Shown: positions 1 through 29,310 of the stretch, piece by piece
How the letters are laid out: each line of letters starts with the position of its first letter
Position numbering within the stretch: the first letter of the stretch is position 1
IMG/VR virus record: IMGVR_UViG_2541047880_000005
From: a virus
Lineage: Duplodnaviria > Heunggongvirae > Uroviricota > Caudoviricetes
Strand: one strand, 5' to 3'
DNA length: 30,413 nucleotides
Translations under genes and position numbers: made by a program
The notes under the pieces: generated by a model
What the model saw: the letters and a program-made list of their open reading frames with translations, nothing else
Told to the model about the DNA's origin: nothing
The model's database searches: none

Positions 1-981
1 TTATAACGTCACTCCGCCTTTTAGTGGATTCAGAGCGACGGCATTTTGCAGATAGTCAGGCGCAAGGTGCGCATAGGCCATCGTCTGCTGAATGCTCGCA
101 TGTCCCAGAATCTGTTGCAGTGCGATTATATTGCCCCCATTCATCATGAAATGGCTTGCGAATGTATGCCGCAGGATGTGGGTTGCCTGATTGGGTGGTA
201 TATCAGGTTTCACTCTGCGTAAAATCCCGCAAAATTTCTCATAATCAACTTTGAATAATTTGGCGCTGGCCTCCTCTTTAACTTTTTTCTCCAGTTCCTC
301 AGAAATCGGCACGGTTCGCTTTTTACCGTTTTTGGTTTTCAGGAAGGTAACCCTGCAATTTGTAATCTGTGCTGGTTTTAGCGTGGCAACTTCCGTCCAT
401 CTTCCTCCAGTGCTCAGACATAAAAGCGCGACAAGTAAGTCATCACCAGCCAAAACATTTAACAGTTTTTCGATTTCTGCTTTTTCCAGGAACGTCATTT
501 CAGGGTTGGCCTCCGCCAGTGGCGGCAGTCCGTGAATTGGGTGTTGCCCGGAAAATTCATCCAATTGAATTAATTTTGTGAACATGCCGGATAATCGGTA
601 CATGTCACGGTTTATCGTTGCGGCACTGATACCATCACGTAGTCGCATGGAACGATAATCCATCAAAGCCCTTTTGCTCATCCTGCTCACTGGTATATCA
701 CCTATGCCGCTGATGGTTTTGAGTAGATGATTAAACTCTTTTGTTCCATGCTCGTGGTTTTGCCCGTGATATTTCCACCAGATGTCCAGCAACTCACTCA
801 AAGTCCGGCGGTCTGCTCGCTGGCCTCCCCATTCTTTCTGACTGGCATTGGCGATTGTGTATCGCTCAAATGCTAGTGCTTCAGCTTTTCTTTCGAATTT
901 CCTGCGGATGCGTTTTCCGTCGCGACCGCGAGGTCTAATGTCCACTTCATAGCGACCATCATCGAGCTTCTTAATTGCCAT
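1..981 (-). CDS. int: Tyrosine recombinase, P2-type prophage integrase. Start chosen at the MAIKKL ATG (981), which has a GGAGG Shine-Dalgarno 8 nt upstream; the longer ORF from the ATG at 1011 has none.
   Basis: ORF track 1..1011 minus strand. N-terminus MAIKKLDDGRYEVDIRPRG resembles P2 Int as I recall it. C-terminus carries the tyrosine recombinase box (LRHTFASHF ... LGHASIQQTMAYAHL). First gene of the prophage, followed by C and cox as in P2. Confidence 0.9.
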   Translation of the reverse strand: MAIKKLDDGRYEVDIRPRGRDGKRIRRKFERKAEALAFERYTIANASQKEWGGQRADRRTLSELLDIWWKYHGQNHEHGTKEFNHLLKTISGIGDIPVSRMSKRALMDYRSMRLRDGISAATINRDMYRLSGMFTKLIQLDEFSGQHPIHGLPPLAEANPEMTFLEKAEIEKLLNVLAGDDLLVALLCLSTGGRWTEVATLKPAQITNCRVTFLKTKNGKKRTVPISEELEKKVKEEASAKLFKVDYEKFCGILRRVKPDIPPNQATHILRHTFASHFMMNGGNIIALQQILGHASIQQTMAYAHLAPDYLQNAVALNPLKGGVTL

Positions 982-1050
982 AAGAAAGCCCTCCGGCGCT
1001 GTATTCACCATCTTGGTAGCAAATGGTGAAAATGTAATCTTTATATAGAG

Positions 1051-1344
1051 TTAGCCAATCCTTTTCGCGGAGTGGTTGGACTCTGTTGACTCTGGCCCAA
1101 TGTGCGCGAGAGCCGGTGCGATTTGTCCTGCGTCCGGCGCGGTTTTATCTGTCATAAGCCATAGAGCATATTTTTGGAATGTGGGATGCATAGTGATTTT
1201 TAGCAAAGCTGTGCCACCGGGTTCAAAGTTTCCTCCTTCATATTTTTTAAGTGTGCTTAGCGGTAACTCTATGATTTCACAGAATTTTGATTGGCTTAGC
1301 CCTTCAGCCTCACGCAAGGCCTTAATCTTTTCGCTTAATTTCAT
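1051..1344 (-). CDS. C: P2-type immunity repressor C (helix-turn-helix)
   Basis: 97-aa ORF on the minus strand directly upstream of int and divergent from cox. C-terminal part (TFQKYALWLMTDKTAPDAGQIAPALAHIG) resembles the P2 C repressor as I recall it. Size and position match P2 C. Confidence 0.8.
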   Translation of the reverse strand: MKLSEKIKALREAEGLSQSKFCEIIELPLSTLKKYEGGNFEPGGTALLKITMHPTFQKYALWLMTDKTAPDAGQIAPALAHIGPESTESNHSAKRIG

Positions 1345-1465
1345 TTGACATGGTGCCTATATAGGGACTAAATTCCCTCAAAACTGGAACCTATATAGGT
1401 TCCATTGATTTGAGAATAAACCAGCGTCTAAACGGTTTTGAGTGGTTTAGAAAGGGCTGGATCCT
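1345..1465. promoter_or_regulatory. C/cox immunity-switch region (putative Pe/Pc promoters and operator). Contains two copies of CCTATATAGG (1356..1365 and 1390..1399); the second lies inside a perfect 18-bp palindrome GGAACCTATATAGGTTCC (1386..1403). A TTGACA -35-like hexamer sits at 1345..1350.
   Basis: Read directly from the sequence. Position between the divergent repressor and cox genes corresponds to the P2 developmental switch. Confidence 0.5.
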
Positions 1466-1480
1466 ATGAGGGTACCATAT

Positions 1481-1753
1481 ATGGACGCTGAAAATTATGT
1501 GATTCAGTATCCGCTTGATGCGGTTCATGTGGATAAATTTGCTGATTTATTAGGGAAGCCAAAGACAGCCGTCAGTGAAATGGTGAAGGCAAATAAATTA
1601 CCAATTATTGAATTGCGTGATCCTTGCAAACCGAAGGCTCGTGCCGGTGAAAAATGGGTTTTCATTCCTGAGTTTAATCGCGCTGTACGTGAGGCGTTTT
1701 ATAACCGACCGGTTGAACAGCGTGATGCATGGCTTTTGTGGATGGGGTTGTGA
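1481..1753 (+). CDS. cox: Cox-like excisionase / early-operon regulator. Start placed at the ATG at 1481, which has a GAGGG Shine-Dalgarno; the ORF track start at 1466 is the alternative.
   Basis: About 90-aa ORF, first gene rightward of the switch region. Resembles P2 Cox in size and in its C-terminal RDAWLLWMGL (P2 Cox ends similarly as I recall). Confidence 0.75.
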   Translation: MDAENYVIQYPLDAVHVDKFADLLGKPKTAVSEMVKANKLPIIELRDPCKPKARAGEKWVFIPEFNRAVREAFYNRPVEQRDAWLLWMGL

Positions 1754-1755
1754 TT

Positions 1756-1926
1756 ATGAATGAGCCGCGTTGTATTGCTCAGTTACTGCGTAACGAAAGC
1801 CCCAGGGCGATTGACTTCACCATCACCCACGGGAAGGGTCGCAAGGGAATCATTATCCGCACCAAAAAACAGAGTCCGTTAAAAAAGGCTCTGACCTTTC
1901 TGAAAAGCCGGAGGGTCTGGAAATGA
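1756..1926 (+). CDS. Small early hypothetical protein
   Basis: ORF track 1729..1926; the first ATG after the cox stop is at 1756. Lies between cox and B where P2 carries a small ORF. No recognisable motif. Confidence 0.35.
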   Translation: MNEPRCIAQLLRNESPRAIDFTITHGKGRKGIIIRTKKQSPLKKALTFLKSRRVWK

Positions 1927-2423
1927 CAGTGATGACGCTCAATCTCGTCGAAAAACAGCCAGCAACTATGCGCCGGATAATTGGTAAGCATCTGGCCGTC
2001 CCTCGCTGGCAGGATACATGTGATTATTATAATCAGATGATGGAGCGCGAACGGTTAACGGTTTGCTTTCATGCGCAGTTAAAACAGCGTCACGCAACGA
2101 TGCGTTTTGAAGAAATGAACGACGTCGAACGTGAACGGCTGGTTTGTGCAATTGATGAATTGCGTGGGGCATTCTCAAAACGCCGTCAGGTTGGCGCAAG
2201 TGAGTATGCATATATTAGTTTTTTAACAGTCAGTCAGCGTCGTACTTTATTTATGCATGCCGGATTGACTGAAAAAGAATTCAACCAGCCATACTGGCGA
2301 ATTAATGAAGAGTCATGTTACTGGCGTGATGCTTTATTCCGTGCATTACGTGAATTATTCAGTCTGTTTGAGTATGCACCGACAATTCTGACGTCGGTAA
2401 AACCAGAGCAATATCTGCATTAA
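1923..2423 (+). CDS. B: Replication protein B (helicase-loader-like), P2 gpB homologue
   Basis: 166-aa ORF, the same length as P2 B, in the cox-B-A early operon position. Start overlaps the upstream stop (ATGA). GGAGG-like Shine-Dalgarno upstream. Confidence 0.7.
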   Translation: MTVMTLNLVEKQPATMRRIIGKHLAVPRWQDTCDYYNQMMERERLTVCFHAQLKQRHATMRFEEMNDVERERLVCAIDELRGAFSKRRQVGASEYAYISFLTVSQRRTLFMHAGLTEKEFNQPYWRINEESCYWRDALFRALRELFSLFEYAPTILTSVKPEQYLH

Positions 2424-2444
2424 GTAATTAACCCGAGTTTTTAA

Positions 2445-2472
2445 CGCACTTAATCGTGCGGGGCTTCTTTTT
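2445..2472 (+). terminator. Possible intrinsic terminator or attenuator after B: stem CGCAC/GTGCG with a 6-nt loop, followed by a T-rich tract (GGGCTTCTTTTT)
   Basis: Hairpin and T-run read directly from the sequence. Confidence 0.35.
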
Positions 2473-2486
2473 GCCTGGAGAAAGTC

Positions 2487-2711
2487 ATGCATACAGTTTC
2501 TGAAAATCAGTGCGGTAAATACGCATTACTGCTGCAACAGGCCAGAACCGAAGCACAGGCCGACGCTGCGACGCGCTTTTCTTCTCGTCTTGACGCCATG
2601 ATTCGCCATATCACAAAGGCGGAGTTATCCCGCGTGGAGATAGTCGAGCTGCTCAGTCAGGAGTCGGAAAAATTTCACAATATCGGATTGTCTCGCGGGG
2701 AGGTGCTTTGA
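2487..2711 (+). CDS. Small early hypothetical protein
   Basis: 74-aa ORF with a GGAGAAAG Shine-Dalgarno upstream; in the B-to-A early region where P2 has several small ORFs. Confidence 0.5.
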
Positions 2712-3010
2712 TGTCCTGTTCTCATTCAGTTGTATTACTGAATAACGCCTTAAAAATCGCCGTTATGGAAAATGGTGATTTGTCTCTTATTCAACTTTGT
2801 CTTGATAAAGAAAAACGCGACATAACTGAATCTGTTATCGCGATTTATCAGAATGAATTAAACCTCCTGTCTGATGTGGTCAATTTACTTGTTAAACGCG
2901 CTGTATTCCACAAGCAAATTTCCTCAGTGGATGAACTGACAAAATTAACGACAGAACTTGCCAGTTATTGCGCTGATGTATCCAGGAAACTTAACGATAA
3001 AAGGAGCTGA
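2711..3010 (+). CDS. Small early hypothetical protein
   Basis: ORF track 2708..3010. ATG at 2711 overlaps the upstream stop (TGATG), with GGGGAGG Shine-Dalgarno. AT-rich. Confidence 0.5.
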   Translation: MSCSHSVVLLNNALKIAVMENGDLSLIQLCLDKEKRDITESVIAIYQNELNLLSDVVNLLVKRAVFHKQISSVDELTKLTTELASYCADVSRKLNDKRS

Positions 3011-3012
3011 TA

Positions 3013-3237
3013 ATGCCGGACAACGTAGATTTTATTCAGGAACAACAGGCTGAATTACTGGAGCGCCAGATTAACGCGGCAAGGGTAAAACATTGCGGTG
3101 TTTCTTCGCTGGTTTGCGAAGAGTGTGACGCGCCAATACCTGCTGCCCGTCGTGCGGCTTATCCGTCAGCCACGCGTTGTGTTTCCTGTCAGTCAGTCTT
3201 TGAAGCAAAAAACAAACATTACCGGAGAACGGCATGA
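3013..3237 (+). CDS. TraR/DksA-family C4 zinc-finger protein
   Basis: 74-aa ORF with two CxxC pairs (CEECDAPIP ... CVSCQ). Strong AAGGAG Shine-Dalgarno. Position matches the P2 early zinc-finger ORF. Confidence 0.7.
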   Translation: MPDNVDFIQEQQAELLERQINAARVKHCGVSSLVCEECDAPIPAARRAAYPSATRCVSCQSVFEAKNKHYRRTA

Positions 3238-3509
3238 GTATTCGTATTGAAATTGGCGAACGTTATGTCGTTACCAGTGACAGCTTTCAGTTTATTCTCC
3301 ACGAGAAAAAGAGAGCGGAAAGCGGTAAAAACGCCGGTCAGGAATGGCTGGCAGTGGTTGGTTATTACCCGAAATTAAGCCAGCTCGTTTCCGGCCTGAT
3401 GCATCACGATATTCTGACCGGAAGCGCAAAGTCTTTTGCTGATTTAAACGCGCAGGTTGAGCAACTCAGCAGGCGTTGTTCAGAGGCTTTTGGCTCATAT
3501 GGCCGTTAA
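3234..3509 (+). CDS. Small early hypothetical protein; its 3' end overlaps the start of A
   Basis: 91-aa ORF; ATG at 3234 overlaps the upstream stop, with a GGAG Shine-Dalgarno. Confidence 0.5.
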   Translation: MSIRIEIGERYVVTSDSFQFILHEKKRAESGKNAGQEWLAVVGYYPKLSQLVSGLMHHDILTGSAKSFADLNAQVEQLSRRCSEAFGSYGR

Positions 3510-5784
3510 AGCCTCCGGGCGTTTTGTCCCTCCGTCAGCATTTGCCGCAGGCACCGGTAAGGCGTTTACCGGTGCTTATGCATGGAACGCGCCACGCGAG
3601 GCCGTCGGGCGGGAAAGACCCCTTACACGTGACGAGATGCGTCAGGTGCAAGGTGTTTTATCCACGATTAACCGCCTGCCTTACTTTTTGCGCTCGCTGT
3701 TTACTTCACGCTATGACTACATCCGGCGCAATAAAAGCCCGGTGCACGGGTTTTATTTCCTCACATCCACTTTTCAGCGTCGTTTATGGCCGCGCATTGA
3801 GCGTGTGAATCAGCGCCATGAAATGAACACCGACGCGTCGTTGCTGTTTCTGGCAGAGCGCGACCAGTATGCGCGCCTGCCGGGGATGAATGACAAGGAG
3901 CTGAAAAAGTTTGCCGCCCGAATCTCATCGCAGCTTTTCATGATGTATGAGGAACTCTGCGATGCCTGGGTGGATGCGCATGGCGAAAAAGAATCGCTGT
4001 TTACGGATGAGGCGCAGGCTCACCTGTATGGTCATGTTGCTGGCGCTGCACGTGCTTTCAATATTTCCCCGCTTTACTGGAGAAAATACCGTAAAGGGCA
4101 GATGACCACGAGGCAGGCATATTCTGCCATTGCCCGCCTGTTTAACGATGAGTGGTGGATTAGTCAGCTTAAAGGCCAGCGTATGCGCTGGCATGAGGCG
4201 TTACTGATTGCTGTCGGGGGGGTCAATAAAGACCGTTCACCTTATGCCAGTAAACATGCCATTCGTGATGTGCGTGCGCGCCGCCAGGCAAATCTGGAAT
4301 TTCTTAAATCGTGTGACCTTGAAAACAGGGAAACCGGCGAGCGCATCGACCTTATCAGTAAGGTGATGGGCAGTATTTCTAATCCTGAAATTCGCCGGAT
4401 GGAGCTGATGAACACCATTGCCGGTATTGAGCGTTACGCCGCCTCAGAGGGTGATGTGGGGATGTTTATCACGCTTACCGCGCCGTCAAAGTATCACCCG
4501 ACACGTCAGGTTGGAAAAGGCGAAAATAAAACCGTCCAGCTTAATCACGGCTGGAATGATGAGGCATTTAATCCAAAGGATGCGCAGCGTTATCTCTGCC
4601 GTATCTGGAGCCTGATGCGCACGGCATTCAAGGATAATGATTTACAGGTCTACGGTTTGCGAGTCGTCGAGCCACACCACGACGGAACGCCGCACTGGCA
4701 TATGATGCTTTTTTGTAATCCACGCCAGCGTAACCAGATTATCGAAATCATGCGTCGCTATGCGCTCAAAGAGGATGGCGACGAAAGAGGAGCCGCGCGA
4801 AACCGTTTTCAGGCAAAACACCTTAACCGGGGCGGTGCTGCGGGATATATCGCGAAATACATTTCAAAAAATATCGACGGCTATGCACTGGATGGTCAGC
4901 TCGATAACGATACCGGCAGACCGCTGAAAGATACTGCGGCGGCTGTTACCGCATGGGCGTCAACGTGGCGCATCCCGCAATTTAAAACGGTTGGCCTGCC
5001 GACAATGGGAGCTTACCGTGAGCTACGTAAATTGCCTCGCGGCGTCAGCATTGCTGATGAATTTGACGAACGCGTGGAGGCTGCACGCGCCGCCGCAGAC
5101 AGTGGCGATTTTGCGTTGTATATCAGCGCGCAGGGCGGGGCAAATGTCCCGCGCGATTGTCAGACTGTCAGGGTCGCTCGTAGCCCGTCGGATGAAGTTA
5201 ACGAGTACGAGGAAGAAGTCGAGAGAGTGGTCGGCATTTACGCGCCGCATCTCGGCGCGCGTCATATTCATATCACCAGAACGACGGACTGGCGCATCGT
5301 GCCGAAAGTTCCGGTCGTTGAGCCTTTGACTTTAAAAAGCGGCATCGCCGCGCCTCGGAGTCCTGTCAATAACTGTGGAAAGCTCAACGGTGGTGATACT
5401 TCGTTACCGGCTCCCACACCTTCTGAGCACGCCGCAGCAGTGCTTAATCTGGTAGATGACGGTGTTATCGAATGGAGTGACCCGGAGGTTGTGAGGGCGC
5501 TCAGAGGTGCATTAAAACACGGACTGAGAACACCACATTGTCAGCCAAGAAACGGAAGCCCGTTAAAACCACATGAAATTGCACCATCGGCCAGACTGAC
5601 CCGGTCGGAAAGAATGCAAATCACCCGTATCCGCGTTGACCTTGCTCAGAACGGTATCAGGCCGCAGCGATGGGAGCTTGAGGCGCTGGTGCGTGGCGCG
5701 ACCGTAAATTATGACGGGAAAAAATTCACGTATCCGGTCGCTGATGAGTGGCCGGGATTCTCAACAGTAATGGAGTGGACATGA
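3499..5784 (+). CDS. A: Replication initiation endonuclease A (rolling-circle HUH nickase), P2 gpA homologue
   Basis: ORF track 3457..5784. Starting at the MAVKASG ATG (3499) gives 761 aa, the P2 gpA length. HUH motif (GTPHWHMMLF, about 4690..4710) and tyrosine motif (GYIAKYISKN, about 4840..4870) are visible. Confidence 0.9.
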   Translation: MAVKASGRFVPPSAFAAGTGKAFTGAYAWNAPREAVGRERPLTRDEMRQVQGVLSTINRLPYFLRSLFTSRYDYIRRNKSPVHGFYFLTSTFQRRLWPRIERVNQRHEMNTDASLLFLAERDQYARLPGMNDKELKKFAARISSQLFMMYEELCDAWVDAHGEKESLFTDEAQAHLYGHVAGAARAFNISPLYWRKYRKGQMTTRQAYSAIARLFNDEWWISQLKGQRMRWHEALLIAVGGVNKDRSPYASKHAIRDVRARRQANLEFLKSCDLENRETGERIDLISKVMGSISNPEIRRMELMNTIAGIERYAASEGDVGMFITLTAPSKYHPTRQVGKGENKTVQLNHGWNDEAFNPKDAQRYLCRIWSLMRTAFKDNDLQVYGLRVVEPHHDGTPHWHMMLFCNPRQRNQIIEIMRRYALKEDGDERGAARNRFQAKHLNRGGAAGYIAKYISKNIDGYALDGQLDNDTGRPLKDTAAAVTAWASTWRIPQFKTVGLPTMGAYRELRKLPRGVSIADEFDERVEAARAAADSGDFALYISAQGGANVPRDCQTVRVARSPSDEVNEYEEEVERVVGIYAPHLGARHIHITRTTDWRIVPKVPVVEPLTLKSGIAAPRSPVNNCGKLNGGDTSLPAPTPSEHAAAVLNLVDDGVIEWSDPEVVRALRGALKHGLRTPHCQPRNGSPLKPHEIAPSARLTRSERMQITRIRVDLAQNGIRPQRWELEALVRGATVNYDGKKFTYPVADEWPGFSTVMEWT

Positions 5785-6236
5785 TGGCAAAAATTCACGA
5801 GGTAAAGCTGCACGCAAAATATTTTGACCTTGTGCTGGAAGGAAAGAAACGCGCAGAGTTTCGGAAAAATGACCGTAATTATGAGCGCGGGGACACGTTG
5901 ATTTTGCATGAATGGGCGCAGGGTGTGTATACGGAGCGAAAGGTTGAAGCCCGGATAACAGATGTTACTGACCTGTCAGACTGGCTGGAAGATTATGTCT
6001 TGCTAAGTATTGAGCTGCTTAATACAGGCGCATATGAGATTGTGAACTGGAAAGAACTTAGTGAGCGTGGTCTGGTATTCAGAATTAATCATGAAATTAT
6101 GCATCAGCTCGGCCTTGCTGTTATGTATGCACCAGAGACGGGGATGTCTGGCGGGGCAATGGTTGCCACGGATGGAGCATGGAACTATTCAGATGAACAG
6201 ATTGAGCGTGCAAAGCAAAACGGGTGGCTTGGATAA
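5781..6236 (+). CDS. Hypothetical protein with an N-terminal ASCH/PUA-like region (tentative)
   Basis: ORF track 5748..6236. ATG at 5781 overlaps the A stop (ATGATG). N-terminus MAKIHEVKLHAKYFDLVLEGKKRAEFRKNDRNYERGDTLILHEW resembles ASCH-type domains; this is a judgement from the sequence, not a search result. GC content is phage-like. Confidence 0.55.
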   Translation: MMAKIHEVKLHAKYFDLVLEGKKRAEFRKNDRNYERGDTLILHEWAQGVYTERKVEARITDVTDLSDWLEDYVLLSIELLNTGAYEIVNWKELSERGLVFRINHEIMHQLGLAVMYAPETGMSGGAMVATDGAWNYSDEQIERAKQNGWLG

Positions 6237-6442
6237 TGCACAGAATACCGGGCGAGATACCGCAACATAACACTAAAAATATCAAGCTGATGGCTATTGT
6301 TCACCGTCTACAGCAGATTATGGTCAACGAAAATCTGACGCCTGACGAGCTGGTCGGGTGTGCCGAAATAGTCCGGGATAATTACGGGCGGCTTAATTAT
6401 ATCCGTCAGTCCAGAGTTGCTCCACCGCCACGCAGACTATAG
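6236..6442 (+). CDS. Small hypothetical protein; start uncertain
   Basis: ORF track 6224..6442 (GTG start). The ATG at 6236 overlaps the upstream stop (TAATG). No recognisable motif. Confidence 0.35.
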   Translation: MHRIPGEIPQHNTKNIKLMAIVHRLQQIMVNENLTPDELVGCAEIVRDNYGRLNYIRQSRVAPPPRRL

Positions 6443-6657
6443 AAAACGCCGTCAGTCTTGAAACTTGTTTTCAGGGCTGGCGGGGTTGAACAACGAGCAT
6501 CGCGAGGCGTTAGTGGTATTGGAACCAATGAGAAAACAAAAAACTCAACGCCTCCCCTCATGTTTGATGGTATGGTCTTGTTTTTAGGTAATGAAGCTTT
6601 ATTCGGGTGACGTGTCTAATATAGCTTTCTGCATGACGTTAGAATGATGATGAGATC

Positions 6658-7260
6658 ATGTTATTAATGAATGAGAAAAAAAGACAAAAATATCTAAAGA
6701 TAATGTTTGAATGTCAAAAGCGACTTGAAACACTTCATGCTTTATCATCTGGAAGGATTGATGGCATTTATTTTCAAGTGTTAATTGAAATGGAGGCGTT
6801 GCAGCTTAGGAAGCTACTAGAGCTCATTGCATTTTCATCTCTAATTTCACATGAAAAAGCATACGAGAAGGTTACAAAGAAGATTGATGGTGTATGGAAG
6901 GCGAAGAATATATTTAAAGAGTTGGAAAAGATAAACCCTAACTTTTATCCAGTACCAATATCAGGAGTAACCAAAACGGGCTGGACGAAACTAACGGGAG
7001 GTTTTTTGACGAAAAAACAGTTTATCAAGCTATATGATGAATGCTCAAAACATATTCACGTAAGGAACCCATATCGGGTTAGGGAAAACTCGCTGGGGTT
7101 TCATAAAAAAGTTCCAGAGTATTTATCAAGAATTGAAACTCTACTGTTAAAGCACATTGTTTCTCTTGCCGGGAATGAAGAACTTCTTCTTGTAGATGTG
7201 CCTCATTATGAAGACTCTGTAACAGCTATAAAAATGAGCCACCTCGTTAAAATGGGGTGA
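6658..7260 (+). CDS. Hypothetical 200-aa protein of unknown family; AT-rich accessory cargo in the P2 tin/old hotspot next to cos. Candidate anti-phage defence or abortive-infection gene.
   Basis: Uninterrupted 200-codon ORF, much more AT-rich than the flanking phage genes (first 60 nt have only 12 G or C). Preceded by a 215-bp non-coding AT-rich leader. Lies between the replication module and cos, where P2 carries tin and old. Predicted lysine-rich and probably helical. Contains an R-x6-H string (RENSLGFH, nt 7081..7104) that is compatible with, but does not prove, a HEPN-type motif. Confidence 0.7.
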   Translation: MLLMNEKKRQKYLKIMFECQKRLETLHALSSGRIDGIYFQVLIEMEALQLRKLLELIAFSSLISHEKAYEKVTKKIDGVWKAKNIFKELEKINPNFYPVPISGVTKTGWTKLTGGFLTKKQFIKLYDECSKHIHVRNPYRVRENSLGFHKKVPEYLSRIETLLLKHIVSLAGNEELLLVDVPHYEDSVTAIKMSHLVKMG

Positions 7261-7293
7261 AAAATAAGCAATAAATAGTCGATTCTAGTGAAC

Positions 7294-7315
7294 GGTCGGC
7301 TATTTTTAGCCGGAT
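7294..7315 (+). terminator. Possible terminator after the cargo gene: stem CGGCTA/TAGCCG with a TTTTT loop, followed by GATTTTTATA
   Basis: Hairpin read directly from the sequence, 30 to 50 nt after the cargo stop codon. Confidence 0.35.
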
Positions 7316-7478
7316 TTTTATACTGTTTCCCCTTAATTACAGTCGTTTCTATTCATGCATGTGCTATTGCATCGAATTGCATGCGTTTTCATCCCCTGTT
7401 GCTTATGAGCGTTGTCAGTGCTGGCGCATTCTCGGTATGTTCATGCAACTGCATCAAAATCGCCCCATGAAGCGGGCG

Positions 7479-7497
7479 GGCGAGGCGGGGAAAGCAC
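7479..7497. other. Putative cos site (P2-type 19-nt cohesive end GGCGAGGCGGGGAAAGCAC)
   Basis: This 19-mer is present here and matches the P2 cohesive-end sequence as I recall it. It lies just beyond the stop of portal gene Q, as in P2 (old-cos-Q). Confidence 0.7.
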
Positions 7498-7661: not shown

Positions 7662-7666
7662 GATGT

Positions 7667-21961: not shown

Positions 21962-22539
21962 TGGCTTTCAGAATGAGTGCAGAAGCACAAACTATCCGCG
22001 TTTTCAATTTACTTAATGGAACCAATGAGTTTATTGGCGAAAGTGATGCATATATTCCGCCGTATACTGGCCTGCCTGCAAACAGTACAGATATTGCACC
22101 ACCTGATATTCCTGCTGGTTATGCAGCCGTTTTCAATGCAGATGAAATGAAATGGGAACTGATGGAAGACCATCGCGGAAAGACCGTCTACGAAACGAAA
22201 ACAGGAGCAGCCATTTATATTTCTGAACTTGGCGTATTACCTCCAGACGTGACAGCTATTTCCCCGGAGGGGGATTATCAGAAATGGGACGGAAATGCGT
22301 GGGTGAATGATGAGAATGCAGAACGTGATGCGCTTGTCAGAGCGGCGGAGTCTCAGAAGAAAGAGCAGATTGCATATGCAGGTGAAATTATTGCCACTCT
22401 GCAGGATGCTGTCGATTTAGATATGGCTACCGAGGAAGAAAAGTTAAGCCTGACACACTGGAAAAAATACCGTGTGCTACTGAATCGCGTTCAGCCGGAA
22501 AATGCCCCGGATATTGAATGGCCGGAACTACCGCAATAA
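21961..22539 (+). CDS. G: Tail fibre assembly chaperone, P2 gpG homologue
   Basis: 192 aa; start overlaps the H stop (TAATG); canonical position. Confidence 0.8.
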
Positions 22540-22544
22540 ACACA

Positions 22545-22570
22545 GGCGGGCTTATTGTCCGCTTTTTCTT
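22545..22570 (+). terminator. Probable intrinsic terminator after G: imperfect GC hairpin (GGCGGGCTTATTGTCCGC) followed by TTTTTCTTT
   Basis: Read directly from the sequence; lies at the end of the V-to-G operon and before the FI promoter region. Confidence 0.55.
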
Positions 22571-22671
22571 TATCGGTGGTTGTGCTGTCGATTAGCCAAC
22601 CGGGACAAATAGCCTGACATCTCCGGCACAACTGAAAATACCACTCACCCATTAACCACGGAGTTAAACGG

Positions 22672-23862
22672 ATGAGTGACTATCATCACGGCGTGCAGGT
22701 GCTGGAGATTAACGACGGCACCCGCGTCATTTCCACCGTATCTACTGCCATTGTCGGCATGGTCTGCACGGCCAGCGATGCGGATGCGGAAACCTTCCCC
22801 CTCAATAAACCGGTGCTGATTACCAATGTGCAGAGCGCAATTGCAAAGGCTGGTAAAAAAGGCACGCTGGCGGCATCGTTGCAGGCCATCGCCGACCAGT
22901 CAAAACCGGTCACCGTTGTCGTGCGTGTGGAAGACGGCACCGGCGACGACGAGGAAACGAAACTCGCGCAGACCGTTTCCAATATCATCGGCACCACCGA
23001 CGAAAACGGTCAGTACACCGGACTGAAAGCCCTGCTGGCGGCGGAGTCGGTAACCGGTGTTAAACCGCGTATTCTCGGCGTGCCGGGACTGGACACCAAA
23101 GAGGTGGCTGTTGCACTGGCATCAGTCTGTCAGAAGCTGCGCGCTTTCGGGTATATCAGCGCATGGGGCTGTAAAACTATTTCCGAGGTGAAAGCCTACC
23201 GCCAGAATTTCAGCCAGCGTGAGTTGATGGTCATCTGGCCGGATTTCCTCGCATGGGATACGGTCACCAGTACCACCGCCACCGCGTATGCCACCGCCCG
23301 TGCGCTGGGTCTGCGCGCTAAAATCGACCAGGAGCAGGGCTGGCATAAAACACTGTCCAACGTTGGGGTGAACGGTGTTACCGGCATCAGCGCATCTGTA
23401 TTCTGGGATTTGCAGGAGTCCGGCACCGATGCTGACCTGCTTAACGAGTCAGGCGTCACAACACTGATTCGCCGTGACGGTTTCCGCTTCTGGGGTAACC
23501 GTACCTGCTCTGATGACCCGCTGTTCCTCTTTGAAAACTACACCCGCACCGCGCAGGTACTGGCCGACACGATGGCTGAGGCGCACATGTGGGCGGTGGA
23601 CAAGCCCATCACCGCAACGCTGATTCGCGACATCGTTGACGGCATCAATGCCAAATTCCGAGAGCTGAAAACAAACGGCTATATCGTGGATGCGACCTGC
23701 TGGTTCAGTGAAGAATCCAACGATGCGGAAACCCTCAAGGCCGGAAAACTGTATATCGACTACGACTATACCCCGGTGCCTCCTCTTGAAAACATGACCC
23801 TGCGCCAGCGTATTACTGATAAATACCTGGCAAATCTGGTCACCTCGGTTAACAGCAATTAA
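22672..23862 (+). CDS. FI: Contractile tail sheath protein, P2 gpFI homologue
   Basis: 396 aa, the P2 FI length. Confidence 0.9.
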   Translation: MSDYHHGVQVLEINDGTRVISTVSTAIVGMVCTASDADAETFPLNKPVLITNVQSAIAKAGKKGTLAASLQAIADQSKPVTVVVRVEDGTGDDEETKLAQTVSNIIGTTDENGQYTGLKALLAAESVTGVKPRILGVPGLDTKEVAVALASVCQKLRAFGYISAWGCKTISEVKAYRQNFSQRELMVIWPDFLAWDTVTSTTATAYATARALGLRAKIDQEQGWHKTLSNVGVNGVTGISASVFWDLQESGTDADLLNESGVTTLIRRDGFRFWGNRTCSDDPLFLFENYTRTAQVLADTMAEAHMWAVDKPITATLIRDIVDGINAKFRELKTNGYIVDATCWFSEESNDAETLKAGKLYIDYDYTPVPPLENMTLRQRITDKYLANLVTSVNSN

Positions 23863-23874
23863 GGAGCCTGACCG

Positions 23875-24393
23875 ATGGCAATGCCGCGCAAACTCAAATA
23901 CATGAATGTCTTTCTGAACGGCTACAGCTATCAGGGCGTTGCAAATTCCGTCACGCTGCCAAAACTGACCCGTAAGCTCGAAAACTATCGCGGTGCGGGG
24001 ATGAACGGCAGCGCACCGGTAGACCTCGGCCTTGATGATGATGCGCTGTCAATGGAGTGGTCGCTCGGGGGCTTCCCGGATTCGGTTATCTGGGAGCTTT
24101 ACGCTGCAACCAGTGCTGATGCCGTACCGATTCGTTTTGCTGGTTCTTACCAGCGCGACGATACCGGTGAAACGGTGGCCGTCGAAGTGGTCATGCGTGG
24201 GCGTCAGAAAGAAGTCGACACCGGAGAGGGTAAACAGGGAGAGGATACCGAATCGAAACTCCCGGTGATTTGTACTTATTTCAAGCTGACGATGGACGGT
24301 AAGGAGCTGGTCGAAATCGACACCATCAACATGATTGAGAAGGTGAACGGCGTCGACCGGCTGGAGCAACACCGCCGCAATATCGGCCTGTGA
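23875..24393 (+). CDS. FII: Tail tube protein, P2 gpFII homologue
   Basis: 172 aa, the P2 FII length. Confidence 0.9.
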   Translation: MAMPRKLKYMNVFLNGYSYQGVANSVTLPKLTRKLENYRGAGMNGSAPVDLGLDDDALSMEWSLGGFPDSVIWELYAATSADAVPIRFAGSYQRDDTGETVAVEVVMRGRQKEVDTGEGKQGEDTESKLPVICTYFKLTMDGKELVEIDTINMIEKVNGVDRLEQHRRNIGL

Positions 24394-24400
24394 TTTTCAT

Positions 24401-24421
24401 CCGGTCAGCCTGGCTGACCGG
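24401..24421 (+). promoter_or_regulatory. Perfect 9-bp stem / 3-nt loop hairpin (CCGGTCAGC CTG GCTGACCGG) between FII and E; possible attenuator or RNA-processing/stability element
   Basis: Read directly from the sequence. Not followed by a clear T-run. Confidence 0.45.
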
Positions 24422-24449
24422 TTAACCCCGATTCAGAAGTGAGAAAACC

Positions 24450-24725
24450 ATGAACAAAGAAAATGTGATTACCCTGGACAATCCGGTCAAGCGTGGTGAG
24501 CAGGTTATCGAACAGGTCACGCTGATGAAACCTAATGCCGGGACGCTGCGCGGTGTCAGTCTGGCTGCGGTCGCGAACTCCGAAGTCGATGCACTGATTA
24601 AGGTGCTGCCGCGCATGACGGCACCGATGCTGACCGAGCAGGAAGTCGCCGCGCTGGAACTGCCTGACCTTGTGGCGCTGGCCGGTAAGGTGGTCGGTTT
24701 TTTGTCGCCGAACTCGGTGCAGTAA
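24450..24725 (+). CDS. E: Tail assembly chaperone E, P2 gpE homologue
   Basis: 91 aa, the P2 E length. Ends in a TTTTTTG slippery heptamer context. Confidence 0.85.
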   Translation: MNKENVITLDNPVKRGEQVIEQVTLMKPNAGTLRGVSLAAVANSEVDALIKVLPRMTAPMLTEQEVAALELPDLVALAGKVVGFLSPNSVQ

Positions 24726-24811
24726 CGTTCCCGAAAAATCTCTCGGTCGATGACCTGATGGCGGATGTGGCAGTGATATTTCACTGGCCGCCATCAGAAC
24801 TGTATCCCATG
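24450..24811 (+). CDS. E': E+E' -1 programmed-frameshift fusion product (tail assembly chaperone, analogous to lambda G/GT); slip at the T TTT TTG heptamer 24698..24704
   Basis: Slippery heptamer is in the correct phase relative to the E frame. Hand translation of the -1 frame from 24704 gives VAELGAVTFPKNLSVDDLMADVAVIFHWPPSELYP, ending at a TGA at 24809..24811. Confidence 0.6.
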
Positions 24812-24869
24812 AGCCTGACCGAACTCATCACATGGCGCGAAAAGGCGCTCCGGCGAAGCGGAAACACGA

Positions 24870-27317
24870 ATGAGTAACAATGTAAAATTACAGGTATTGC
24901 TCAGGGCTGTTGACCAGGCATCCCGCCCGTTTAAATCCATCCGCACAGCGAGTAAGTCGCTGTCGGGGGATATCCGGGAAACACAAAAATCACTGCGCGA
25001 GCTGAACGGTCACGCATCCCGTATTGAGGGATTTCGCAAGACCAGCGCACAGCTTGCCGTGACTGGTCATGCACTTGAAAAGGCACGGCAGGAAGCCGAA
25101 GCCCTTGCCACACAGTTTAAAAACACTGAACGTCCGACCCGTGCTCAGGCGAAAGTGCTGGAATCCGCAAAGCGTGCGGCGGAGGACTTACAGGCGAAAT
25201 ATAACCGCCTGACAGATTCCATTAAACGCCAGCAGCGGGAACTGGCCGCTGTGGGAATTAATACCCGCAATCTTGCACATGATGAGCAGGGACTGAAAAA
25301 CCGTATCAGTGAAACCACCGCACAGCTTAACCGTCAGCGTGACGCGCTGGCGCGTGTCAGTGCACAACAGGCAAAACTTAACGCAGTAAAACAGCGTTAT
25401 CAGGCCGGAAAGGAACTGGCCGGAAATATGGCCTCAGTGGGCGCTGCCGGTGTGGGGATTGCTGCTGCGGGAACGATGGCCGGAGTTAAGTTGCTGATGC
25501 CCGGTTATGAGTTTGCGCAGAAAAACTCAGAATTGCAGGCTGTGCTCGGTGTGGCAAAAGACTCCGCCGAAATGGCTGCACTACGCAAGCAGGCGCGCCA
25601 GCTCGGCGACAATACCGCAGCCTCGGCAGATGATGCAGCCGGTGCGCAGATTATTATTGCGAAAGCCGGTGGGGATGTTGATGCCATTCAGGCGGCAACG
25701 CCGGTCACGCTGAATATGGCGCTGGCGAACCGTCGCACGATGGAAGAAAACGCCGCCCTGCTGATGGGGATGAAATCCGCCTTTCAGCTTTCAAACGATA
25801 AGGTCGCTCATATCGGGGATGTTCTCTCCATGACGATGAACAAAACCGCCGCCGATTTTGACGGTATGAGCGATGCGCTGACCTATGCCGCACCAGTGGC
25901 AAAAAATGCCGGTGTCAGCATTGAAGAAACCGCCGCAATGGTCGGGGCGCTGCATGACGCAAAAATTACTGGTTCAATGGCGGGGACGGGAAGCCGTGCC
26001 GTGTTAAGCCGCCTGCAGGCACCGACGGGAAAAGCATGGGATGCACTCAAAGAGCTTGGTGTGAAAACCTCAGACAGCAAGGGAAATACCCGACCAGTAT
26101 TTACCATTCTGAAAGAAATGCAGGCCAGTTTTGAGAAAAACCGGCTCGGTACTGCCCAGCAGGCTGAATACATGAAAACTATTTTCGGGGAGGAGGCCAG
26201 CTCAGCCGCCGCCGTGCTGATGACTGCCGCCTCAACTGGAAAGCTGGACAAACTGACCGCTGCGTTTAAAGCCTCAGACGGGAAGACCGCTGAGCTGGTA
26301 AATATCATGCAGGACAACCTCGGCGGTGACTTTAAGGAGTTTCAGTCCGCTTATGAGGCGGTGGGGACTGACCTGTTTGACCAGCAGGAAGGCGCACTGC
26401 GTAAGCTCACGCAGACGGCCACAAAGTATGTGTTAAAACTCGACGGCTGGATACAGAAAAACAAATCACTGGCGTCAATCATCGGCATCATTGTCGGTGG
26501 TGCACTGGCGCTGATTGGTGTCATCGGTGCCATTGGCCTCGTAGCCTGGCCGGTTATCACCGGCATCAATGCCATCATCGCGGCAGCAGGCGCAATGGGA
26601 GCAATCTTCACGACGGTTGGCAGTGCTGTTATGACGGCCATCGGGGCGATTAGCTGGCCGGTTGTGGCCGTGGTGGCCGCCATTGTCGCCGGGGCGTTAC
26701 TTATCCGTAAATACTGGGAGCCTGTCAGCGCATTCTTTGGCGGTGTGGTTGAAGGGCTGAAAGCGGCATTTGCGCCGGTGGGGGAACTGTTCACGCCACT
26801 TAAGCCGGTGTTTGACTGGCTGGGCGAAAAGTTACAGGCCGCGTGGCAGTGGTTTAAAAACCTGATTGCCCCGGTCAAAGCCACCCGGGACACCCTGAAC
26901 CGTTGCCGTGATACGGGCGTCATGTTCGGGCAGGCACTGGCTGACGCGTTGATGCTGCCGCTTAATGCGTTCAACAAACTGCGCAGCGGTATTGACTGGG
27001 TACTGGAAAAACTCGGTGTTATCAACAAAGAGTCAGGCACGCTTGACCAGACCGCCGCCAGAACTCATGCCGCCACGTATGGCACCGGTGGTTATATTCC
27101 GGCGACCAGCTCTTATGCAGGCTATCAGGCTTATCAGCCGGTCACGGCACCGGCTGGCCGCTCTTATGTGGACCAGAGTAAAAACGAATATCACATCAGC
27201 CTGACGGGTGGTACTGCACCGGGGACACAGCTTGACCGCCAGTTACAGGATGCGCTCGAAAAATACGAGCGGGATAAACGTGCGCGCGCCCGTGCCAGCA
27301 TGATGCATGACGGTTAA
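24870..27317 (+). CDS. T: Tail tape measure protein, P2 gpT homologue
   Basis: 815 aa, the P2 T length. Coiled-coil-rich N-terminus, Ala/Gly-rich hydrophobic central segments. Confidence 0.9.
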   Translation: MSNNVKLQVLLRAVDQASRPFKSIRTASKSLSGDIRETQKSLRELNGHASRIEGFRKTSAQLAVTGHALEKARQEAEALATQFKNTERPTRAQAKVLESAKRAAEDLQAKYNRLTDSIKRQQRELAAVGINTRNLAHDEQGLKNRISETTAQLNRQRDALARVSAQQAKLNAVKQRYQAGKELAGNMASVGAAGVGIAAAGTMAGVKLLMPGYEFAQKNSELQAVLGVAKDSAEMAALRKQARQLGDNTAASADDAAGAQIIIAKAGGDVDAIQAATPVTLNMALANRRTMEENAALLMGMKSAFQLSNDKVAHIGDVLSMTMNKTAADFDGMSDALTYAAPVAKNAGVSIEETAAMVGALHDAKITGSMAGTGSRAVLSRLQAPTGKAWDALKELGVKTSDSKGNTRPVFTILKEMQASFEKNRLGTAQQAEYMKTIFGEEASSAAAVLMTAASTGKLDKLTAAFKASDGKTAELVNIMQDNLGGDFKEFQSAYEAVGTDLFDQQEGALRKLTQTATKYVLKLDGWIQKNKSLASIIGIIVGGALALIGVIGAIGLVAWPVITGINAIIAAAGAMGAIFTTVGSAVMTAIGAISWPVVAVVAAIVAGALLIRKYWEPVSAFFGGVVEGLKAAFAPVGELFTPLKPVFDWLGEKLQAAWQWFKNLIAPVKATRDTLNRCRDTGVMFGQALADALMLPLNAFNKLRSGIDWVLEKLGVINKESGTLDQTAARTHAATYGTGGYIPATSSYAGYQAYQPVTAPAGRSYVDQSKNEYHISLTGGTAPGTQLDRQLQDALEKYERDKRARARASMMHDG

Positions 27318-27331
27318 GGAGGTGACGAAAA

Positions 27332-27811
27332 ATGATGCTCGCGTTAGGTATGTTTGTTTTTATGCGCCAGACGCTGCCACACCAGACCATGCAGCGTGAA
27401 TCAGATTATCGCTGGCCGTCAAATTCCCGTATCGGTAAACGGGATGCCTACCAGTTTCTCGGCGTTGGTGAGGAAAACATGACGCTTGCCGGTGTGCTTT
27501 ATCCCGAACTGACCGGCGGCAAGCTGACGATGACCACGCTCAGACTGATGGCAGAGGAAGGCCGGGCGTGGCCGTTGCTGGATGGCACCGGCATGATTTA
27601 CGGCATGTATGTCATCAGCAAGGTGAGTGAAACAGGGAGTATTTTCTTTGCAGACGGCACACCCCGGAAAATTGATTTTACGCTGTCGCTCACCCGCGTT
27701 GATGAATCACTGGCCGCGCTTTATGGCGATATCGGTAAACAGGCGGAATCGCTCATCGGTAAGGCTGGCAGTATGGCGACTAAATTCACGGGTATGACGG
27801 GGGCGGGATAA
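27332..27811 (+). CDS. U: Tail protein, P2 gpU homologue
   Basis: 159 aa, the P2 U length; strong AAGGAGG Shine-Dalgarno. Confidence 0.85.
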   Translation: MMLALGMFVFMRQTLPHQTMQRESDYRWPSNSRIGKRDAYQFLGVGEENMTLAGVLYPELTGGKLTMTTLRLMAEEGRAWPLLDGTGMIYGMYVISKVSETGSIFFADGTPRKIDFTLSLTRVDESLAALYGDIGKQAESLIGKAGSMATKFTGMTGAG

Positions 27812-28974
27812 TGCTGGATGCACTGACATTTGATGCAGGCAGTACGCTGACGCCGGATTACATGCTGATGCTCGACAGCAGGGATATTACCGGCAATATC
27901 AGCGACCGTCTGATGAGCATGACCCTGACGGATAACCGGGGCTTTGAGGCTGACCAGCTTGATATTGAACTGAACGATGCCGACGGGCAGGTCGGACTAC
28001 CGATTCGTGGCGCTGTCCTGACGGTGTATATCGGCTGGAAAGGTTTTGCCCTGGTATGCAAAGGGAAATTTACCGTTGATGAGGTTGAACACCGGGGCGC
28101 ACCGGATGTGGTCACCATCCGCGCCCGGAGTGCAGATTTTCGCGGGACGCTCAATTCCCGCCGTGAAGGCTCATGGCATGACACCACGCTCGGTGCGATT
28201 GTTGAGGCGATAGCCTCCCGTAACAGGCTGGAAGCCAGTGTCGCTCCATCACTGGCCGGAATTAAAATCCCGCACATCGACCAGTCGCAGGAGTCTGATG
28301 CGAAATTTCTGACCCGTCTTGCAGAACGCAACGGCGGTGAGGTGTCGGTAAAAATGGGAAAACTGCTGTTTCTCAAAGCGGGGCAGGGGGTGACGGCCAG
28401 CGGTAAAAAAATCCCGCAGGTCACCATCACCCGCAGCGACGGTGACCGCCATCATTTTGCGATTGCTGACCGTGGAGCCTACACCGGCGTAACGGCAAAG
28501 TGGTTACACACCAAAGACCCGAAGCCGCAAAAGCAGAAGGTAAAACTGAAACGCAAAAAGAAAGAAAAACACCTGCGCGCACTGGAGCACCCGAAAGCAA
28601 AACCGGTCAGGCAGAAGAAAGCGCCAAAAGTACCGGAAGCGCGCGAAGGTGAATACATGGCCGGTGAGGCTGACAACGTTTTTGCCCTGACCACGGTATA
28701 TGCCACGAAAGCACAGGCCATGCGTGCCGCTCAGGCGAAGTGGGATAAACTGCAACGGGGCGTTGCGGAGTTCTCCATCAGCCTGGCTACCGGTCGTGCT
28801 GATATTTACACGGAAACACCGGTTAAAGTATCAGGCTTTAAGCGCGTCATAGACGAGCAGGACTGGACAATCACTAAGGTGACACATTTTCTGAATAATA
28901 GCGGCTTCACGACGTCCTTAGAGCTTGAGGTCAGGCTTTCTGATGTGGAGTACGAAACAGAAGATGATGAGTGA
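27811..28974 (+). CDS. D: Tail/baseplate hub protein, P2 gpD homologue
   Basis: 387 aa, the P2 D length; overlaps the U stop (TAATG). Confidence 0.85.
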   Translation: MLDALTFDAGSTLTPDYMLMLDSRDITGNISDRLMSMTLTDNRGFEADQLDIELNDADGQVGLPIRGAVLTVYIGWKGFALVCKGKFTVDEVEHRGAPDVVTIRARSADFRGTLNSRREGSWHDTTLGAIVEAIASRNRLEASVAPSLAGIKIPHIDQSQESDAKFLTRLAERNGGEVSVKMGKLLFLKAGQGVTASGKKIPQVTITRSDGDRHHFAIADRGAYTGVTAKWLHTKDPKPQKQKVKLKRKKKEKHLRALEHPKAKPVRQKKAPKVPEAREGEYMAGEADNVFALTTVYATKAQAMRAAQAKWDKLQRGVAEFSISLATGRADIYTETPVKVSGFKRVIDEQDWTITKVTHFLNNSGFTTSLELEVRLSDVEYETEDDE

Positions 28975-29055
28975 TGTAATTTATTTATCTGTTTGTTTTA
29001 TAAGGATAAATTAACTAAAATGGCACTATCAACAAAACCGGAAGAGGTGCTCGCG

Positions 29056-29274
29056 ATGTTTCATTGTCCTTTATGCCAGCATGCCGCACATGCGCGTACA
29101 AGCCGCTATATCACTGACACGACAAAAGAGCGTTATCACCAGTGTCAGAACGTGAATTGCAGCGCCACGTTCATCACCTATGAGTCGGTACAGAGATACA
29201 TCGTGAAGCCGGGAGAAGTCCACGCCGTAAGGCCGCACCCGTTGCCGTCAGGGCAGCAAATTATGTGGATGTGA
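29056..29274 (+). CDS. ogr: Ogr, zinc-finger late-gene transcription activator
   Basis: Within ORF track 28993..29274. Starting at MFHCPLCQHAAHARTSRYITDTTKERYHQCQNVNC (29056) gives 72 aa, the P2 Ogr length, with the C4 zinc-finger cysteines. Last phage gene before the host junction, as in P2. Confidence 0.9.
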   Translation: MFHCPLCQHAAHARTSRYITDTTKERYHQCQNVNCSATFITYESVQRYIVKPGEVHAVRPHPLPSGQQIMWM

Positions 29275-29284
29275 TCACAAAAAT

Positions 29285-29310
29285 AGCCCCTCAGTTGAGG
29301 GGCTTTATTT
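29285..29310 (+). terminator. Intrinsic terminator after ogr: AGCCCCTC AGTT GAGGGGCT hairpin followed by TTATTT
   Basis: Perfect 8-bp stem with a 4-nt loop, 10 nt after the ogr stop. Confidence 0.7.

Follow-up and report, generated by a model that had tools for sequence, protein, structure and literature searches.

The analysed stretch of DNA, a window of 30,413 nt, appears to hold a complete P2-like temperate myovirus (genus Peduovirus) that is integrated in E. coli and, as judged from its sequence, is most likely able to form infectious particles. It is an ordinary new member of this genus and adds nothing new to the knowledge of P2-like phages. In a tblastn comparison, 38 of the 42 annotated P2 proteins were matched in the window, end-to-end and as a single uninterrupted HSP with the exception of H, G and orf91. 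Q, P, O, N, M, L, X, Y, K, R, S, V, W, J, I, FI, FII, E, T, U, D, ogr, B and A were found at P2 length and in P2 order (92-100% identity, single HSP), and lysA, lysB, lysC, orf78 and orf80-83 were likewise full length. The initial annotation had proposed that all expected P2 genes are present, uninterrupted, in canonical order and mostly at canonical lengths. This holds for every essential gene, whereas H and G align to P2 only in part, orf91 is the 150-aa form of L-413C, and no counterparts of P2 orf30, fun(Z), tin and old were detected in the window by tblastn with the 42 P2 proteins. These four are non-essential lysogenic-conversion genes of P2.

The early region on the plus strand comprises orf78, B, orf80, orf81, orf82 (DksA/TraR zinc finger) and orf83 (1756-3509; full length in tblastn, 88-100% to P2), followed by the rolling-circle replication initiator A (3499-5784, 761 aa; 96.8% over 761/761 residues) and an orf91-like protein of 150 aa with DUF3850/ASCH and DUF7415 domains in Pfam (5784-6236; 90% to L-413C orf91). 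The portal Q (344 aa) and the large terminase P (590 aa) are encoded on the minus strand at 7667-10473 (98.3% and 99.5% to P2). On the plus strand, these are followed by the head, lysis and tail completion genes O, N, M, L, X, Y, K, lysA, lysB, lysC, R and S (10647-16847; full length, 92-100% to P2), and, identified by tblastn against P2, the baseplate genes V, W, J and I (16914-19329) and the tail genes FI, FII, E, E+E', T, U and D (22672-28974). The late activator gene ogr (29056-29274, plus strand) encodes 72 aa, all identical to P2 Ogr (72/72), and is followed by a terminator hairpin.

To evaluate intactness, the window was aligned to P2 (NC_001895) and to two Yersinia phages, L-413C (AY251033), a clear-plaque mutant of the temperate L-413, and vB_YpM_50 (NC_055846, Peduovirus YPM50), an isolated plaque-forming phage. 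About 23.5 kb aligned to P2 at 92-98%. Collinearity with L-413C extended over 27 kb at 96-97%, free of gaps in 1-6277 and 7479-21312, and 7 gap positions were counted in 22542-29432; because of this collinearity, no IS or other inserted element is present. The DNA was also collinear with vB_YpM_50. None of the 29 genes checked contained an internal stop, and synonymous and non-synonymous codon differences to L-413C amounted to 346:135, with the head genes too being under purifying selection. The earlier statement that frameshifts, insertion sequences and truncations are lacking therefore stands, and careful alignment did not uncover any disrupted gene. Marks of a defective prophage (broken essential genes, IS, a lost att site) were not found in the alignment, stop and att checks, and with 29.5 kb the prophage falls into the size range of virion genomes sequenced for this group (28.9-33.8 kb). 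Among complete E. coli genomes, the nearest match was that of strain M15 (98.2%).

The cis-acting sites of a P2-like phage were recovered as well. The cohesive-end sequence GGCGAGGCGGGGAAAGCAC at 7479-7497 (plus strand), placed between the accessory gene hotspot and gene Q, confirms the cos listed in the initial annotation; it matches the cos 19-mer of P2 and L-413C exactly, and the 90 bp to its left are identical to the vB_YpM_50 virion genome at 89/90 positions. The ori nick region inside A (about 5327-5390) is identical to that of P2 at 63/64 positions. The divergent late promoters PP/PO with the Ogr activator site (10520-10615) are identical to P2 3040-3135 (96/96), and the late promoter PF with its Ogr site (22560-22671, plus strand) matches at 113/116 positions. 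The S-V spacer (16848-16913, 66 bp) is of the L-413C type without orf30; this PV region is identical to L-413C only, and P2 PV with its activator site did not align to it. A strict regular expression search for TGT-N12-ACA in the late intergenic regions returned no element. The -1 frameshift slippery site GGTTTTTTG is present at 24696 (TTTTTTG, 24696-24704), and the E+E' frameshift product (24450-24877) is open and has 142 aa as in P2, from which it differs in one residue. The fun(Z) locus is empty, with 133 bp separating G and FI, while vB_YpM_50 carries an additional 373-aa gene there. In gene order, cos, late promoters, ori, Ogr and the E/E' frameshift, the prophage resembles P2.

Differences to P2 were found in the tail fibre. 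H (873 aa) and its chaperone G/Tfa (192 aa), which contain tail-fibre and Caudo_TAP domains according to Pfam, are encoded at 19340-22539 on the plus strand. By tblastn, only residues 1-207 of H matched P2, and G matched partially (39%). Residues 1-675 of H are 96% identical to L-413C, and the distal part shows 89% DNA identity to Peduovirus P24A7b. To judge from these alignments, the C-terminal receptor-binding part of H and the chaperone are of a type other than those of P2 and L-413C. vB_YpM_50 has its own, Y. pestis-specific type of tail-fibre tip and chaperone (H 911 aa, G 175 aa). The exact H protein was present in 53 collection blocks.

The lysogeny module likewise departs from P2. The tyrosine integrase gene int (1-981, minus strand, 326 aa; its stop codon ends at position 1 of the window) encodes Int_N and Phage_integrase domains (Pfam) and belongs to the WPhi/L-413C class, with 99.7% identity to L-413C Int and 322/326 identical residues to Int of WPhi (AY135739). 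It is followed by the gene for the HTH immunity repressor C (1051-1344, minus strand, 97 aa; HTH_3), which is 100% identical to L-413C C, and by cox (1466-1753, plus strand, 95 aa, or 90 aa from an alternative start at 1481; Phage_Cox), with 98.9% identity to L-413C Cox. All three have L-413C lengths and are just 52, 43 and 43% identical to P2 int, C and cox, so that the module can be assigned to the WPhi/L-413 type rather than to that of P2. WPhi represents a different immunity class, since its C is identical at 54/97 positions only and its operator spacer could not be aligned. In the region 1345-1399 (plus strand), the early promoter Pe (TTGACA-18-TAAATT, 1345-1374) is accompanied by two copies of CCTATATAGG at 1356-1365 and 1390-1399, which presumably serve as C operators. 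The C-cox spacer is shared without change by 11 further prophage copies (12 including the window) and by vB_YpM_50, whereas that of L-413C has three substitutions that none of these share.

Divergent C (HTH_3) and cox (Phage_Cox) genes, Pe and direct repeats are what is expected of a P2-type C/Cox switch, and the immunity switch that had been called plausible could be recognised as such. A promoter consensus scan gave no match for Pc. Prophages with a P2-type C/Cox switch are insensitive to SOS, and their excision is poor, since expression of Int depends on Pc, the promoter of the repressor, and that of Cox on Pe, the lytic promoter. A LexA-box-like site was not found when up to 3 mismatches were allowed; all ORFs between int and ogr are homologues of P2 or L-413C genes or belong to the hotspot, and a LexA-controlled antirepressor (Tum), as in the SOS-inducible 186-type switch (CI/Apl/Tum), does not seem to be encoded. 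The suggestion that the prophage looks inducible was therefore not supported. It is not of the SOS-inducible type, and only rare, spontaneous release is to be expected. This corrects what an induction experiment should rely on, namely spontaneous release or derepression by P4 epsilon or Cox, and not treatment with mitomycin C or UV.

The prophage sits between E. coli cpxP and fieF, in the terminator of cpxP/CpxQ. Its right end is the 47 bp attR core at 29386-29432 (plus strand) and not position 29310, where the element had first been taken to end. The core is made up of the 3'-terminal 44 nt of the sRNA CpxQ and 3 further nt, and it equals the attP cores of L-413C and vB_YpM_50; Rfam at gathering thresholds returned no match, including for this partial CpxQ copy. 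The core is preceded by two Int arm-type repeats of the P arm (TGTGGAC twice, 11 bp apart, 29319-29336, plus strand), arranged as in the P arm of P2, and followed, outside the phage, by host fieF (29511-30413, plus strand), which agrees with the K-12 gene of E. coli at 897/903 nt. The left end with the attL core and the P' arm lies outside the window. A missing attL would have spoken against an intact prophage; it is present in contig L016, which is 100% identical to window positions 1-15784 and in which an intact attL core, the same as the attR core, adjoins cpxP 116-162 bp to the left of the window. If the starts of the two cores are taken as its limits (162 bp left of the window for attL, 29386 for attR), the phage genome has a length of 29,548 bp. 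The integrase (322/326 to WPhi) and the core common to its cpxP-side and fieF-side junctions place the prophage in the WPhi/L-413 integration class. WPhi has its attachment site downstream of cpxP as well, and its attP core is identical to that of L-413C (PMC3448106); the attachment site of P2 is a different one.

Among the isolated phages, vB_YpM_50 shares with the prophage its integrase, C, cox, switch spacer and attP core, and the DNA identity is 99.0% over 1-3498, 96.5% over 3499-20580 and only 93.5% in the tail region 22542-29432. Prophage copies that are far closer were found in other hosts. One copy, in another E. coli lineage, differs by 5 substitutions in 29.4 kb, whereas its flanks differ by 0.8-2.7%. 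Another copy at the same site has 4 substitutions in 15.8 kb; in its contig, the proteins encoded next to the prophage are those of Salmonella enterica, and the flank shows 86.6% identity (13% divergent). The SnoaL-like flank protein of L017 gave only an 84% hit to a Citrobacter species, which did not reveal the host, whereas exact cluster names resolved it as Salmonella enterica. Since near-identical copies occur in another E. coli lineage and in Salmonella enterica, the phage must have spread recently. Such copies could also have been moved as chromosomal segments by conjugation, generalised transduction or recombination, in which case the spread would be uninformative on viability; the evidence for spread is the sequence identity of the copies. 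However, the attL core of the Salmonella contig is exactly the point where the identity falls from 99.97% to 86.6%, and in the second E. coli a divergence of 0.017% gives way to one of 0.8-2.7% at the att cores. These drops indicate site-specific integration and not homologous replacement of a larger segment, and we consider segment transfer very unlikely. That the prophage is not decayed but part of a live mobile element, as initially proposed, is well supported by its intact genes and regulatory sites, attL in L016, the 346:135 ratio and the near-identical copies in other hosts.

A structurally complete prophage could still be functionally dead if it was freshly inactivated by a missense mutation, the most plausible candidate being S359N in the large terminase gpP (nt 9398). 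This change is derived, private to the strain of the window and the sole non-synonymous change that arose in its lineage relative to the near-identical sisters. The exact gpP protein occurs in just 2 contigs, none of 1511 complete E. coli genomes with a match to the surrounding 61-mer matches it exactly, and Ser occupies position 359 in 120 of 122 aligned sequences. On the other hand, Ser to Asn is a conservative exchange, Asn is found at this position in one homologue, P0183 from Klebsiella, and there was very little time for decay, because the window is just 2 derived substitutions away from the ancestor that it has in common with the copies in other hosts. We therefore regard inactivation as unlikely, if less so than segment transfer. 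The least probable reading, to which we give hardly any credence, is that of a tailocin or defence island domesticated from a P2-like phage, which the host would retain for the tail or the cargo and which would have ceased to act as a phage. It would fit the cargo in a known defence hotspot and the existence of decayed P2 relatives with the same cargo (L013 with IS21 in gene O, L014 with a broken gene A, L005 with a shortened lysA), but purifying selection acts across the head genes, and intact head, portal, terminase, cos, replication and integrase genes or sites together with both att sites contradict such an element.

The phage was inserted by its WPhi-class tyrosine integrase at the cpxP/CpxQ terminator upstream of fieF, and lysogeny is presumably maintained by the L-413-class C repressor, which would act on the pair of CCTATATAGG repeats at Pe. 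For lytic growth, the scheme known from P2 would apply, in which Cox shuts off Pc, gpA nicks ori within its own gene, Ogr switches on four late operons and the terminase M/P cuts cos. Its transfer between hosts was very recent.

The single accessory module of the prophage lies at the hotspot and consists of a 68-aa ORF (6236-6442, plus strand; phrog_11386), for which the related M15 prophage has an annotation, and a gene for an uncharacterised 197-aa orphan protein (6667-7260, plus strand; phrog_13799) that lies, according to the GC profile, in a region of about 39-42% GC. A terminator-like hairpin is located near this gene at 7296-7313. The cos-proximal slot between gpA and gpQ is a known defence hotspot, in which P2 has old and tin. 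The cargo at this position is a 330-aa ORF in L-413C and a methylase and others in WPhi, whereas vB_YpM_50 carries the same 197-aa protein (99.4% DNA identity over 6230-7478). It is the location of the gene that suggests a role in phage exclusion or defence, and we tentatively propose that the live prophage might be the vehicle of a widespread, uncharacterised single-gene phage-exclusion factor. The accessory gene rides a complete, recently mobile phage and not a decaying remnant, and its distribution, including that between E. coli and Salmonella, is to be read as phage-borne horizontal transfer.

Searches of Pfam and PADLOC with the 197-aa protein gave no match, and a sequence-profile search of the PDB was negative. 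A HEPN toxin was considered and rejected, as the likeness was weak and non-significant (probability 0.1-0.2) and the Rx4-6H motif is absent. The genomic context of a Pseudomonas homologue was uninformative. AlphaFold predicted a helical-bundle-plus-sheet structure (pLDDT 90.6), for which Foldseek found no match in the PDB (best E-value 0.6) or BFVD (best E-value 0.24). Arg48, Glu52, His131 and His163 of the protein are invariant.

Stop codons bound the window, that of the integrase at position 1 and that of the host gene fieF at position 30413; fieF is identical to its E. coli K-12 counterpart at 897 of 903 nt. Peduovirus (P2-family) phages were the top megablast matches to the window. Within its first 25 kb, the isolated Yersinia phage vB_YpM_50 gave 92% coverage (97.2% identity), L-413C, the clear-plaque mutant of the temperate Yersinia phage L-413, 90% (97.1% identity) and P2 84% (96.2% identity). 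Similar prophages are carried by most complete E. coli genomes, and the prophage in the window is a new but unremarkable representative of a very well-known kind.

All 42 annotated P2 genes were translated and used as tblastn queries against the window. Q, P, O, N, M, L, X, Y, K, lysA, lysB, lysC, R, S, V, W, J and I as well as FI, FII, E, T, U, D, ogr, orf78, B, orf80-83 and A each yielded one HSP covering approximately the whole protein, and these full-length matches (88-100% identity) had the lengths and the order known from P2. The E+E' product of the -1 frameshift was likewise open (142 aa, one residue different from that of P2), with the slippery GGTTTTTTG located at 24696. For P2 orf30, fun(Z), tin and old, which are non-essential lysogenic-conversion genes of P2, no tblastn match was obtained in the window; the corresponding S-V (66 bp) and G-FI (133 bp) slots were empty, and the A-Q slot was filled by other cargo. 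The initial annotation, which had listed all expected P2 genes, was thus correct for the full-length set in P2 order, but not for these four genes.

Int, C and Cox showed only 52, 43 and 43% identity to their P2 counterparts, whereas identity to those of L-413C was 99.7, 100 and 98.9%. In the P2-like phage WPhi, Int was identical to that of the window at 322 of 326 residues, but C at just 54 of 97. As Int is near-identical to that of WPhi and C to that of L-413C, the element pairs integration of the WPhi class with immunity of the L-413 class. Over its first 675 residues, H (873 aa) is 96% identical to H of L-413C, and for its distal part and the Tfa-type chaperone G (192 aa) Peduovirus P24A7b (89% DNA identity) and STYP1 were nearest; the public collection contained the exact H protein in 53 blocks. 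Window and L-413C were collinear in three stretches, 1-6277 and 7479-21312 (both without gaps) and 22542-29432 (7 gap positions); therefore, no IS elements or indels are present outside the two swapped modules. In the 29 genes compared codon by codon with L-413C no internal stop was found, and most codon differences were synonymous (346 against 135 non-synonymous), a sign of a live lineage. Full-length P2 genes, uninterrupted codons and collinearity confirm that the prophage is intact, and its description as free of frameshifts, insertion sequences and truncations was borne out.

The right end of the element is formed by a 47-bp core, GACACCATCCCTGTCTTCCCCCACATGATGTGGGGGTTTTTTTTATC, at 29386-29432, and the end at 29310 proposed initially is too short. 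This attR core is identical to the attP cores of L-413C and vB_YpM_50 and the P arm in front of it contains TGTGGAC twice, at 29319 and 29330. The core corresponds to the last 44 nt (3' end) of CpxQ, a 58-nt sRNA (cpxP terminator), plus 3 nt, with the E. coli K-12 copy at L004 1345-1391. In the phage class of the window the core lies 116 bp past the int stop codon, so that attL and the P' arm are necessarily located outside the window. Via an exact gpA match, contig KE701712.1 of GCA_000460395.1 (L016) was found to be 100% identical to window positions 1-15784. It carries an identical 47-bp core at 6340-6386, intact and directly after cpxP, in the order cpxP, core, P' arm repeats, int; therefore, attL, on which the reading as an intact prophage hinges, is not missing. 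One phage-genome length amounts to 29,548 bp and thus falls within the 28.9-33.8 kb measured for sequenced virion genomes of the group.

Because the phage carries its own copy of the 3' part of CpxQ, the sRNA is rebuilt at attL (L016 6326-6386), with one change (C to A) in the terminator loop, and attR holds a partial CpxQ copy without promoter. The terminator-loop base is A in both cores of the window prophage; the host C was found at attR in the prophage-carrying E. coli strain M15 and in GCA_027986685.1.

The cis-acting sites were also conserved. The cos site reported before was recovered as an exact 19-mer at 7479-7497, and the 90 bp to its left were identical to the packaged vB_YpM_50 genome at 89 positions. 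Identity to P2 was 96/96 in the region of the late promoters PP/PO, 113/116 for PF and 63/64 in the ori nick region inside gene A. The S-V spacer, in which PV is expected, did not align to P2; its sequence exactly matches the S-V spacer of L-413C, a viable phage.

Differences from near-identical copies were polarised against outgroups, and just two changes were derived in the window lineage, a synonymous one in D and S359N in the large terminase gpP (nt 9398, codon 359 of gene P). The 61-mer around the S359N site matched 1511 complete E. coli genomes, and in none of them was the match exact; the exact gpP protein occurred in only 2 public contigs. Position 359 is Ser in 120 of 122 aligned sequences, and Asn was also found in one Klebsiella homologue. 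Given this private substitution, a silent functional defect of the prophage was considered and is judged improbable. Other rare gpP residues, R325 (codon 9499-9501) and R348 (codon 9430-9432), are both Leu-to-Arg changes at positions where homologues have V or L (325) and, in 120 sequences, L (348); as they are common to copies in other hosts and to the more distant M15 prophage, they are apparently tolerated.

That the prophage is intact and recently mobile is supported by its closest relatives. The isolated, plaque-forming vB_YpM_50 shares int, C, cox, the switch spacer, the attP core and the cargo gene with the window. The same prophage is present in GCA_027986685.1, where just 5 substitutions separate it from the 29.4 kb lying in the window, and in a contig of GCA_032677865.1 (L017 6340-22286), where it shares the insertion site at cpxP and differs by 4 substitutions in 15.8 kb. 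Proteins flanking the latter are exact Salmonella enterica proteins, and its flank shares 86.6% identity with that of E. coli; this copy indicates a very recent transfer between genera. Identity with copies in other hosts falls off exactly at the att core, as expected if the phage integrated site-specifically after infection. These near-identical copies and the break at the core uphold the view of the cargo gene as part of a live mobile element.

Relatives with the same cargo show an IS21 inside gene O (L013 14379-16933), a split gene A (L014 8486-9118), a lysA shortened to 83 aa (L005 18323-18574) and an orf82-orf83 fusion (L010 6346-6843). Such decayed or variant prophages serve well as negative controls when a prophage is called intact, and none of the lesions of the decayed ones (IS21 in O, broken A, short lysA) was found in the window.

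The immunity switch is of the P2 C/Cox type. Between C and cox a strong candidate for the early lytic promoter Pe (TTGACA-18-TAAATT) was found at 1345-1374, with CCTATATAGG occurring once on either side of its -10 region at a spacing of 34 bp; by analogy with O1 and O2 of P2 these two copies are putative C operators. The C-cox spacer (1345-1465) of the window recurs unchanged in vB_YpM_50 and in 11 other prophage copies. No LexA-box-like site was found in a search of the window, and a Tum-like antirepressor is absent, since every ORF is either a P2/L-413C homologue or a hotspot ORF. As established for P2, SOS does not induce prophages of this type and their excision is inefficient, because Int is made from the repressor promoter Pc and Cox from Pe. 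The earlier assumption that the prophage is inducible is unsupported.

In L-413C, the C protein is 100% identical and the spacer (L002 24686-24806) differs at 3 positions: C to A at the left edge of the first CCTATATAGG repeat, GGTTCC to GGTTAC two bases downstream of the second, and TAAATT to TAAACT in the Pe -10 hexamer. These substitutions are candidates for the cause of its clear-plaque phenotype.

The sole accessory DNA (6236-7478, from the orf91-like gene to cos) lies in the gpA-gpQ interval, the locus of old and tin in P2 and described as a defence hotspot (PMC9122126). It contains two ORFs (68 and 197 aa), and the GC content of the region is ~39-42%. The 197-aa protein (6667-7260) had no match in Pfam or PADLOC and belongs to phrog_13799, a family without known function; this cargo arrangement is listed in Table S5 of PMC9122126 with no function given. 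Only its location would suggest a role in defence. As reported in PMC13586616, 19% of P2-like elements have only unknown-function genes at this locus, and 15-32% of such P2 proteins score as defensive. The exact sequence was present in 1748 collection blocks, in P2-like prophages with at least 3 different integrase/att modules, and at 30-50% identity the family reaches Pseudomonas, Shewanella and metagenomes. The AlphaFold model was confident (pLDDT 90.6), and no significant structural neighbour was found in PDB or BFVD. R48, E52, A55, L59, F93, Y94, P95, L114, F119, Y123, H131, P135, L159 and H163 were invariant.
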